Shown here: positions 19,160-21,545 of the stretch, piece after piece
Layout: each line of letters begins with the position of its first letter
Position numbering within the stretch: position 1 is the stretch's first letter
DNA from: Actinomycetota bacterium
GTDB taxonomy: Bacteria; Actinomycetota; Actinomycetes; S36-B12
Direction: 5' to 3'
DNA: 64,000 nucleotides
NCBI GenBank assembly: GCA_009699465.1
Contig: WLOE01000001.1
Coordinates: forward strand, 309 to 64,308
Notes under the pieces: generated by a model
What the model was told of the DNA's origin: nothing
The model's input: only the letters and a program-made list of their open reading frames with translations
The model's database searches: none
Program-made: the position numbers and the translations under genes

Positions 19160-21545
19160 ACTGCTTGCCCGGGACGCCGAGACGTCCATCACCAGCATCC
19201 AGCAGCATCGCCATCCACCATGAGACCTCGGTGGCCGTCAACGTAGGGAGCCGCACCATGCAGACCGGGATCTTGAACGACGTCCGGATTGTCGACCTTT
19301 CGGACGGCATCGCCGGCCCGACGGCCACCATGGTGCTCGCCGAGGCAGGCGCCGACGTCGTACTCGTGGAGCCACCAGGTGGAGTGACCACCCGTTCCCT
19401 GCCGGGCTTCAAGACCTGGAACCGCAGCAAGCAATCTGTCGTGCTGGACGTGCATGAGTCCGCTGGCCGCGAGCGCCTCGACGCGTTGCTGGCCGGCGCG
19501 GACGTGCTAGTCCACTCGCTCTCGCCGACCAAGGCACGCGAGCTCGGGCTCGATGATGCCTCGCTGGCCGCCGCCCATCCGCATCTCATCGCCTGCTCGG
19601 TGCTCGCGTGGCCGGCGAACCATCCCGATGCGGAGCTGCCGGTCGACGACCTGCTCGCGCTCGCGCGCATGGGCGTGCTCGACGAGCAGCAGGGCCTGCG
19701 TGAGGGCCCCATCTACGTGCGCTTCCCACTGGGCAGCTGGGGCGCGGTCTGGCTTGCCGCCATGGGGATCATGGCCCGGCTCATCGTCCGTGGCCGCACA
19801 GGCTCGGCCGGCCCGATACATACAAGCCTGGTGCAAGGCGCCCTGATCCCGATGATGATGCACTGGTCGCGGGCGGAAACGCCGTCCGACGCCCTTCGGA
19901 TCGGTATGCCCAAGGGGAACATGCAGGCCTCGCTCTTCGAATGCTCCGACGGGCGCTGGGTGCACGCGATGCAGCCGGCCCCGTGGGGCACCCCGCTCAT
20001 GGACGAGGCGCTGGGCGAGCTGGGACCGGAAGCCGTCGAGGAGGGTGCGACCCTCGCCGCGACTGGCCTCTGGGGGGACATGACTCTGGTACGCAAGGCG
20101 TTCCTGCGCCGGACGGCGCAGGCCTGGCTCGACAACGCCTGGGCCAACGACCGACCGGCGCAGGGCGCGTTCGAGGTGGGCGCGATCCTCGGCGACGAGC
20201 AGGCACGCATCAACCGCTACGTCATCGAACTGGATGACCCGGAGGCCGGGCGCATCACGGTGCCCGGGCTGCCGCTGACCTTGGACCCTCCGACGCAGGT
20301 GCGCTGGCCCGCGCCGGCGCTCGGCCAGCACCAGGATGCGGCAGGAGCCGACTGGGCTCCGAGGGAGGCTCCAGTGGCCGAGGCCACGAGCCAGCGCTAC
20401 CCGCTGGCCGGCTTGAAAGTGCTGGACTTCGGCAACTACCTGGCCGGCCCGCTCGGCCCGATGCTGCTGGCCGACCTCGGCGCCGATGTCATCAAGGTCG
20501 AGGCCACCACTGGCGACCCGATGCGCTGGGGGGATTGGCCCTTCGCCGGCTGCCAGCGCGGCAAGCGCACCATCGCGGTTGATCTCAAGTCACCTGACTC
20601 GCGCCCCGTGCTCGAATCGCTTGTGCGATGGGCCGACGTCGTCCACCACAACCTGCGCATGCCCGCCGCTCGCCGCCTGGGCCTGGACTCCGCGTCGCTG
20701 CGGAAGATCAACCCCGATCTCGTCTTCTGCCACACGAGCTCCTACGGCCCGAAGGGGCCGCGCGCCGATTGGCCTGGCTATGACCAGCTGTTCCAGTCGT
20801 CCTGCGGCTGGGAGGTTGCCGGCGCCGGCGAGGGCAACCGGCCGATGTGGCACCGCTTCGGCTTCATGGACCACCAGTGCGCGATGTCGTCGGTGGTCTC
20901 CACACTGCTCGCGGTCTACGAGCGCGACCGCACCGGCCGCGCTATCGATGTGGCCGGCTCGCTGCTCGGACCCGGCGTGCTCACCACGAGCGAGACCTAC
21001 CTGCAGGCCGACGGCACGCTCGCACCGATGGCCCGGCTCGACCACGACCAGATGGTCACCACGCCCGGTGCCCGCCTGCTCATTTGCTCGGATGCGTGGA
21101 TCGCTGTGGCCGCGCATCGCGACGACCAGGTTGCGCGCCTGTGCGAGGTGCTCGGCGTGGTCGCCCCGGACTCGCTTCCGAAGGCCGCCGCCGACCGCGC
21201 ATCCGGCGAACTACTCCACGCGCTCGCAGCAGCAGACGTACCGGCCGAGCTCGTGCGGCTCGACAACAAGAACTCCTTCTTCGACGACCCGGCCAACCAG
21301 GAGATCGGGTTGGTTGTCTCCTACCAGCACGGCGCCTGGGGCCGTCTCGAGCAGCCGGGCGCAATGTGGGACTTCGGCGACCTCGACACGAGGTTCGACT
21401 ATGCGCCGCCGCTGCTCGGCGAGCACACCGTCGAAGTGCTGCGCGAGATCGGCTTCGACGAGGCCGGCATCGATGGGCTGCTCGCCGCGCAGGTGGTCAA
21501 GACCGCCTAGCGACAAGGCAGAGTTATCGCCGGCGGAGGCGACCC
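19160..21545. other. Compositional island: ~2.4-kb high-GC block, putative horizontally acquired single-gene insertion
   Basis: Hand-counted 60-nt lines inside give 43/60 and 41/60 G+C. Lines outside give 32/60, 25/60 and 26/60. Long shadow ORFs pile up in many frames on both strands only here. Boundaries are approximate, to within about 30 nt. Confidence 0.7.
19258..21510 (+). CDS. Family III (CaiB/BaiF-type) CoA-transferase, tandem two-module fusion
   Basis: 750 aa from ATG at 19258, with AGGGAG Shine-Dalgarno 7-12 nt upstream. The track ORF starts at 19165. Module 1 begins [27 protein letters not shown]. Module 2 restarts near residue 385 with [30 protein letters not shown]. Confidence 0.8.
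   Translation: [750 protein letters not shown]

Follow-up and report, generated by a model that had tools for sequence, protein, structure and literature searches.

The window, a stretch of 64,000 nucleotides (nt) from an Actinomycetota bacterium (contig WLOE01000001.1, positions 309 to 64,308 of the forward strand), contains at 19258-21510 a gene encoding a coenzyme A (CoA) transferase of 750 amino acids (aa), in which two complete modules of family III (type III) are joined in one chain. Only the second module carries Asp at the catalytic position (Asp538), the gene is foreign to the genome in which it lies, and it is under selection. The explanation that we favor, with fair confidence, is that of a type III CoA-transferase which was acquired horizontally and is under selection, a pseudo-heterodimer in a single chain whose one catalytic site is at Asp538.

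Two-module architecture and catalytic asymmetry

The coding sequence (CDS) shows a ribosome-binding site, AGGGAG, at 19245-19250 and runs from an ATG at 19258 to a TAG at 21508-21510. The initial annotation, made from the letters of the sequence, had described a 750-aa product with the peptides it quoted, and 19258-21510 is indeed an uninterrupted open reading frame (ORF) encoding it. The gene contains the following features:

19258..21510, + strand: uninterrupted CDS of the two-domain family III (CaiB/BaiF/Frc-type) CoA-transferase, 750 aa
19273..20334, + strand: N-terminal CoA_transf_3 module, residues 6-359, PF02515 E 9e-64, presumed non-catalytic partner
19735..19737, + strand: codon of Ser160, opposite the family III catalytic Asp in alignments to Rv3272 D175A, 10uh and the protein's own D538
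20335..20403, + strand: inter-module linker, residues 360-382, poorly conserved, coil in the model
20404..21429, + strand: C-terminal CoA_transf_3 module, residues 383-724, PF02515 E 2e-87, predicted catalytic module
20869..20871, + strand: codon of Asp538, predicted catalytic nucleophile, aligned with the Asp of the solved 10uh, 4ed9 and SUGCT

The whole protein matches PF02515 of Pfam in two stretches with 504.5 bits (curated cutoff 23.3), and each half alone covers the complete profile (1-366 of 366) at the residues and E-values listed. The two halves are 28% identical over 272 residues (E 1e-20), and the internal duplication is detectable even in the DNA (19312-19359 and 20443-20490, with a spacing of 1131 nt). 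Two complete family III modules in one chain, far beyond chance, are what the initial annotation had described, and the separate full-length matches of both halves bear this out. In the family alignment, the region 351-375, at the linker, is among the three least conserved windows (H = 2.3 bits) and residues 376-550 are the most conserved part. The public records name the protein 'CoA transferase [Actinomycetota bacterium]' (MSW65656.1, CAB4615526.1), and its named database relatives carry just 'CoA transferase' or 'CaiB-like'. The NCBIfam equivalogs for Frc, YfdE, CaiB, succinate-glutarate CoA-transferase, succinyl-CoA:mesaconate CoA-transferase and Mct all score far under their cutoffs (best scores/cutoffs 196/750, 172/700, 169/504, 126/522, 106/413 and 60/725). 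Rv1866, a putative mycobacterial two-domain homolog, was set aside, being listed only as a hypothetical protein in the literature found.

The two modules differ at the catalytic position. Asp538 (FGFMDHQ) aligns by phmmer with the Asp of Brucella 10uh, of 4ed9 and of human SUGCT, which are also the best solved matches of the C-terminal half (10uh, E 5e-37; SUGCT, 2.5e-30; also 4ed9). In the N-terminal module, the position is fixed by Rv3272: its wild-type structure (5yit) and its D175A mutant (5yiy) show a single differing aligned residue, and the residue opposite is Ser160 (PLGSWG). Ser160 also lies opposite the Asp of 10uh and, when the N-terminal half is aligned to the C-terminal half, opposite D538. 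The initial annotation placed a catalytic acidic segment in each module and proposed a check for both Asp residues by alignment to solved structures. Its claim stands for the second module, where the Asp is conserved, but not for the first, where it is absent: the active site is not at MGVLDEQQG, a segment approximately 18 residues upstream of the position that aligns with the catalytic Asp. Its suggestion that the two sites of such a fusion can diverge agrees with Ser160 against Asp538.

This asymmetry is general. Among 82 full-length homologs, position 538 is Asp in all 82, and position 160 is Ser in 62, Thr in 16, and Asn and Ala in two each; Asp or Glu is found in none. A search of 1.84 billion cluster representatives with the N-terminal half gave 550 matches at E <= 1e-30, and the best 150 of these are mostly proteins of ~730-830 aa that match in two separate stretches. 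Twelve such fused proteins, distant representatives at 25-46% identity, have Ser, Thr or Gly at the catalytic column of the N-terminal module and Asp at that of the C-terminal one. The order of an Asp-less first module and an Asp-bearing second module appears to hold for fused proteins from more than 100 sequence clusters, the column itself having been read in the 82 homologs and the 12 representatives. Judged by these alignments, the catalytic Asp that family III requires is supplied by the C-terminal module and not by the N-terminal module.

Ser-type modules are also found as complete stand-alone proteins of ~380-395 aa. A Chloroflexota metagenome contig (L172) contains a Ser-type gene (P0340) at 4001-5140 and, after a gap of 12 nt, an Asp-type CoA_transf_3 gene at 5153-6349, with DUF35 and thiolase genes nearby. 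The Asp-type protein is 39% identical to the C-terminal half of the CoA-transferase of the window. Since this split pair shows the same Ser-then-Asp order, in two genes there and in a single ORF here, the fused protein looks like a joined heterodimer of an Asp-less and an Asp-bearing subunit, and the pair is likely a model of the pre-fusion state. A characterized heteromeric family III enzyme is BbsEF (PDB 9fn0/9fol), the succinyl-CoA:(R)-benzylsuccinate CoA-transferase of anaerobic toluene degradation, in which two different family III polypeptides form one enzyme; its subunits are separate, whereas those of the window are fused. The BbsEF operon also contains a DUF35 and thiolase pair (BbsAB), and DUF35 and thiolase-like genes are the commonest downstream neighbors of the fused family.

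The head-to-tail fusion is not new, contrary to what the initial annotation had implied, since a two-domain class has already been published (PMC6006322). That study names DddD, a protein with two CaiB domains (PMC7174347; Alcolombri et al. 2014), as the first type III CoA-transferase with two domains to be characterized and places it as outgroup to the other two-domain proteins. It also describes PtmU4, a two-domain enzyme which converts aryl-CoA to thioacid; in PtmU4 and its homologs, the C-terminal domain is the one with the conserved Asp, and mutation of Asp430 lowers the activity 125-400-fold. The class comprises 2,401 two-domain homologs, mostly of Actinobacteria (28 clusters) and Proteobacteria (PMC6006322). 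The protein of the window shares with it the tandem type III domains, the poorly conserved linker and the Asp only in the C-terminal domain, and belongs to the host group, Actinobacteria, in which the class is abundant and diverse. The likeness to PtmU4 is one of architecture and Asp placement, taken from its description; that to DddD, also by description, is the tandem of CaiB-like modules in one polypeptide.

Family III CoA-transferases form interlocked two-ring dimers, and each active site lies where the large domain of one unit meets the small domain of its partner. An AlphaFold2 model of the whole 750-residue chain, built from a 20-sequence family alignment, shows a mean pLDDT of 88 and a pTM of 0.93, and residues 342-386, between the modules, are coil and mostly confident. 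The model is confident as one globule, in line with the single-chain tandem described in the initial annotation, and a pTM of this value implies that the predicted mutual arrangement of the modules is confidently fixed, as it would be reachable only in that case. The Foldseek matches in the PDB are single-module family III chains of at most 430 residues, each covering about half of the model (TM-score ~0.45 normalized to the query and ~0.7-0.8 to the target), and no solved two-domain member is among them. The single-domain enzymes compared (Frc, YfdW, CaiB, SUGCT, Rv3272, 10uh/4ed9, MCR and Mct) share the module fold at this target-normalized TM-score, and the C-terminal module of the window shares their catalytic Asp position. 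They are homodimers of ~350-450-aa chains with two equivalent sites, and their dimer corresponds to the two modules of the 750-aa chain, which has one Asp. In the N-terminal small-domain region 201-250, a fraction of 0.20-0.24 of the columns is invariant at >=95%, against 0.04-0.12 in the C-terminal counterpart. Among the invariant residues of the N-terminal small domain (~200-320) are H202, W203, R205, G216-K219, E228, D231, W234 and H236. By analogy with the known dimers, completion of the D538 site by the N-terminal small domain would fit this conservation pattern of invariant columns and a conserved C-terminal large domain.

The N-terminal module retains the Rossmann-type N-terminal signature. 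The N-terminal half has an omega of 0.04-0.10 and the C-terminal half one of 0.08-0.13; because both halves are equally constrained, the Asp-less module is not decaying. For the whole gene, dN/dS is 0.06-0.11, and the gene is kept in all contigs of the same species, which agrees with the selected function proposed initially.

An acyl-CoA racemase or an intramolecular isomerase (MCR- or Mct-like, MCR being the alpha-methylacyl-CoA racemase) is a very unlikely alternative. Alpha-methylacyl-CoA racemases are among the solved matches of the N-terminal half (E ~1e-16 to 5e-17), and the native gene neighborhoods described below are reminiscent of the catabolism of branched lipids or steroid side chains, in which racemases take part. 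However, the half with the racemase matches is the one which has Ser160 in place of the Asp of racemases and transferases, and the C-terminal half is nearer to the transferases (10uh, SUGCT) than to the racemase 2g04 (E 1.2e-19). In Mycobacterium tuberculosis MCR we take the catalytic acid/base pair to be His126/Asp156, and the His motif of racemases to be GHD. Read by eye, this position is GYD in the C-terminal half and PVDD in the N-terminal half. For the isomerase, the NCBIfam model for 2-methylfumaryl-CoA isomerase gives only 60 bits for a cutoff of 725.

Foreign origin, insertion spot and spread of the cassette

The CoA-transferase gene is clearly foreign to its host genome. Its GC content is 0.699 against 0.523 for the window, its GC3 is 0.876 against ~0.5 for the neighboring genes, and the GC steps are sharp, at ~19200 and ~21550. 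The features which surround it are the following:

18433..19008, - strand: dcd (dCTP deaminase), native left flank, Pfam DCD
19070..19257, + strand: 5' leader travelling with the gene, aligned with L002 and L003 from ~19070-19103 to the ATG
21609..22118, + strand: orfX, ~170 aa, secreted-looking, 96% nt identity to L001, shares the exchanged tract
22608..22680, + strand: tRNA-Gly(CCC), native right landmark, called by ARAGORN and Rfam

A cassette of ~2.4 kb with the CoA-transferase gene recurs in two unrelated contexts, where its nt identity is 93-94%. One of them, L003, is a genome of 60% GC, in which the cassette lies directly before a tRNA-Phe-Asp-Glu cluster, near Sua5 and HtrA; the other, L002, has ~70% GC. 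The homology of the window with both stops 3-9 nt past the stop codon, and upstream it includes a non-coding leader of ~150-190 nt, whose 5' and 3' parts are conserved and whose middle is of variable length, with 42 nt fewer in L003 and 13 nt more in L002. The leader gave no match in Rfam at the gathering threshold or at E <= 5, save a 14.6-bit snoRNA match judged meaningless. A scan upstream of the gene showed no sigma-70-like promoter, and the only hairpin in the scan that resembles a terminator was called on the + strand, at the stop codon of dcd. The leader could hold a promoter or regulatory element of the donor. In both contexts a second fused two-domain CoA-transferase paralog, of 769 aa, is located just upstream on the opposite strand (L003 294-2603, - strand; L002 13-1811); between L002 and L003 the paralogs are only 74% identical and the cassettes 92.5%. 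Downstream of the cassette, L002 4450-4530 resembles the tRNA-Phe of L003 and was not called by ARAGORN; it could be a degenerate tRNA copy or stem from an error of assembly.

Comparison with relatives also supports the import claimed by the initial annotation. In relatives with 80-90% identical Dcd, dcd adjoins DUF2237 or tRNA-Gly, with no CoA-transferase gene between them, and in L095 and L140 tRNA-Gly directly adjoins dcd. The interval between dcd and DUF2237/tRNA-Gly (19009-23128 in the window) varies by lineage (compared in L082, L083, L086, L095 and L140): it is ~60 nt in L083, 4.6 kb with a 1105-aa ORF in L086, and 4.1 kb in the window, where it contains the CoA-transferase gene, orfX, arfB, tRNA-Gly and a glyoxalase gene. 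The insertion lies 5' of tRNA-Gly rather than at the 3' end of this gene. Neither an integrase nor a transposase is among the annotated neighboring ORFs. A 12-nt direct repeat at 19035/21637, with one mismatch, was rejected as a target-site mark, since ~20 such pairs are expected by chance in 4.4 kb and it misses the homology boundaries. The nearest homologs in compositionally native settings, at 80% aa identity, are those of Jatrophihabitans and of a Frankiales metagenome-assembled genome (MAG; GC of the flank L004, 0.71), followed by those of Acidimicrobiia and Frankia.

The gene is present in all contigs of its species and shared with a sister species. All 10 independent contigs of the same species, from several samples and assemblies, carry it with identical junctions and 98.6-99.97% identity; no empty site appeared among the contigs with an identical Dcd protein, as L168, which had seemed to be one, begins inside the gene (window 20175). 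In the sister species (L001/L175), nt identity is 98.2% for the CoA-transferase gene and 96% for orfX, against 86% for dcd, 79% for arfB and 74% for genes further out. Because the CoA-transferase gene and orfX are far more alike than their flanks, this profile points to a tract of ~3.1 kb that was recently exchanged by recombination. OrfX, with a GC content of 0.48, shows an N-terminal signal-peptide-like segment (…IIPTTAQA|AS), has no match in Pfam and is absent beside the CoA-transferase gene in L002 and L003.

These data also bear on whether the gene is a passenger with no function, a pseudogene in decay, or a chimera of assembly or binning which joined a high-GC fragment to a low-GC contig. 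The abrupt change of composition at the flanks and the lack of partner genes nearby would suit such an origin. However, every copy has an intact reading frame, and the low dN/dS given above also holds between the two species which share the insertion. A chimera is ruled out by the ten same-species contigs with identical junctions; in addition, the protein of the sister species was read on 24 contigs, all with the same neighboring genes, and occurs on contigs of up to 1.1 Mb. This alternative is largely refuted, the least probable of those considered, and pseudogene and assembly artefact are, like racemase activity, unlikely.

Gene neighborhoods and probable activity

The contig comes from a freshwater metagenome, and its ClpB clusters with that of 'Candidatus Nanopelagicales'. 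The surroundings of the gene are those of a cellular chromosome (dnaK operon, clpB, dcd) and give no ground for considering a viral origin. To the left lie clpB, hspR, dnaJ, grpE, dnaK and dcd, and to the right orfX, arfB, tRNA-Gly(CCC), and glyoxalase, DUF2237 and cell-envelope genes. The cell-envelope cluster (23582-32449), which encodes an AT3-SGNH acyltransferase, a sulfatase, a fused GT2 and CDP-glycerol glycerophosphotransferase, a sulfotransferase and an ABC-2 exporter pair, is strongly diverged from the sister species (74% nt identity). No acyl-CoA synthetase, dehydrogenase, hydratase or dedicated regulator is found within ~10 kb of the CoA-transferase gene, in agreement with the initial statement that no metabolic partners travel with it. 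At 31-40 kb, the region 52159-59652 contains genes encoding the beta and alpha subunits of an electron transfer flavoprotein (ETF), an Fe-S/CCG oxidoreductase, a TetR regulator and two adjacent acyl-CoA dehydrogenases (ACADs), one of which (58285-59652) is 54% identical to ACADs encoded beside fused CoA-transferases in other genomes. These genes are possible distant functional partners, and since the window holds ETF and ACAD genes, the host could process an acyl-CoA once made.

Genes within five of the homolog were counted at 78 homolog loci outside the cassette group of the window. Short-chain dehydrogenases/reductases (SDRs) are present at 27 loci, SCP-x-type thiolase-like genes at 24 (often directly downstream on the same strand), acyl-CoA synthetases at 22, Amidohydrolase_2 genes at 15, cytochromes P450 at 13, luciferase-like monooxygenases at 12, DUF35/ChsH2-type OB proteins at 11, ACADs at nine and enoyl-CoA hydratases at six; 58 of the 78 loci show at least one of these nine types. 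Actinobacterial catabolism of lipids, steroid side chains or alicyclic acids has this gene content, which also resembles the bbs operon in combining a CoA-transferase with a DUF35/thiolase pair. In the window, none of the nine types is found within 10 kb of the gene. The closest native homologs (69-80% identity) have mixed neighbors, SRPBCC, SDR, M18 peptidase, sulfotransferase, MDR dehydrogenase, PEP-utilising enzyme and ACAD, and their neighborhoods give no precise clue to the substrate. The initial view that the substrate cannot be inferred holds at this locus; homologs elsewhere offer some context, as they lie in catabolic clusters of acyl-CoA or lipid type.

The main alternative, an unlikely one to which we give more weight than to the others, is a non-classical enzyme, in which an acyl-CoA and the C-terminal Asp would serve another chemistry, for example thioacid formation with a sulfur carrier, as in PtmU4, or coupled CoA transfer and elimination, as in DddD. 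The architecture and the Asp placement are the same as in PtmU4, both characterized two-domain enzymes are non-canonical, and a lone gene could act on an acyl-CoA made by the host without a dedicated partner. The neighborhoods, however, differ. In thioacid cassettes (PtmA3 and PtmU4), an acyl-CoA synthetase is within two genes in more than 90% (PMC6006322); here none is found within 10 kb, and an AMP-binding gene lies within two genes at only seven of the 78 homolog loci, so that 71 have none at this distance. Sulfur-carrier genes were not seen either, and sulfur transfer is not assumed to be the reaction. DddD, the CoA-transferase/lyase of DMSP, is longer (~820-830 aa against 750 aa), belongs to marine proteobacterial hosts rather than to a freshwater actinobacterium, and is encoded in a ddd operon with a BCCT-type DMSP transporter, dddB/dddC and LysR, neighbors which are absent at this locus. 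Moreover, the usual same-strand downstream partner in the native loci is the thiolase/DUF35 pair, which points to metabolism of beta-oxidation type.

Proposed origin and mechanism, and their significance

In the preferred explanation, the pseudo-heterodimeric CoA-transferase with one site, the two modules would fold onto each other like the subunits of an interlocked dimer, as the model and the known dimers suggest. One of the two interface sites would be competent, that of Asp538, most likely completed by the N-terminal small domain, and the Ser160 module would be a conserved non-catalytic partner with a structural or substrate-binding role. The architecture would be ancient, and probably arose from the fusion of a gene for an Asp-less subunit with an adjacent gene for an Asp-bearing subunit. 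The donor would be a high-GC actinobacterial lineage, from which a single-gene cassette of ~2.4 kb entered the variable spot between dcd and tRNA-Gly; the cassette would then have spread between sister freshwater species by recombination and been held by purifying selection. The most probable activity is CoA transfer in which a common CoA thioester is the donor and a specific carboxylic acid the acceptor. By analogy with the native neighborhoods, the acceptor acid is probably lipid-like, alicyclic or side-chain-bearing, and beta-oxidation enzymes of the host itself would take up the product.

Several points weigh against this explanation. The interlock of the modules and the choice of small domain at the D538 site come from the model and from analogy rather than from direct observation. 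The N-terminal module, equally constrained, may bind CoA or substrate, or do more than act as a scaffold. As DddD is a transferase/lyase and PtmU4 carries out sulfur transfer, canonical transfer is not guaranteed for a two-domain member. The gene has no partner genes near it here and its closest native neighborhoods are heterogeneous, and neither a mobility gene nor a target-site repeat accounts for the movement of the cassette.

A bolder possibility, which we consider improbable, is that a single-gene cassette of a one-site two-domain CoA-transferase is sweeping through freshwater Actinomycetota of divergent GC content (52%, 60% and ~70%) and confers a new one-step capability, with the Asp-less module setting the specificity. 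If so, streamlined planktonic cells would gain the activation or cleavage of an abundant dissolved organic acid, or a non-canonical chemistry such as thioacid formation.

For the family, these proteins offer a natural example of a homodimer turned into an obligate pseudo-heterodimer with one active site, because the Asp asymmetry is general, both halves are equally constrained and a split pair exists in the same order. The fusion itself was already known; the generality of the asymmetry, the equal constraint and the split pair are added here. For microbial ecology, the gene is a clean single-gene acquisition by a small-genome freshwater actinobacterium, with sharp boundaries, recent spread between species and strong purifying selection, and the identity of its substrate could reveal a carbon source or a transformation that matters in lakes.

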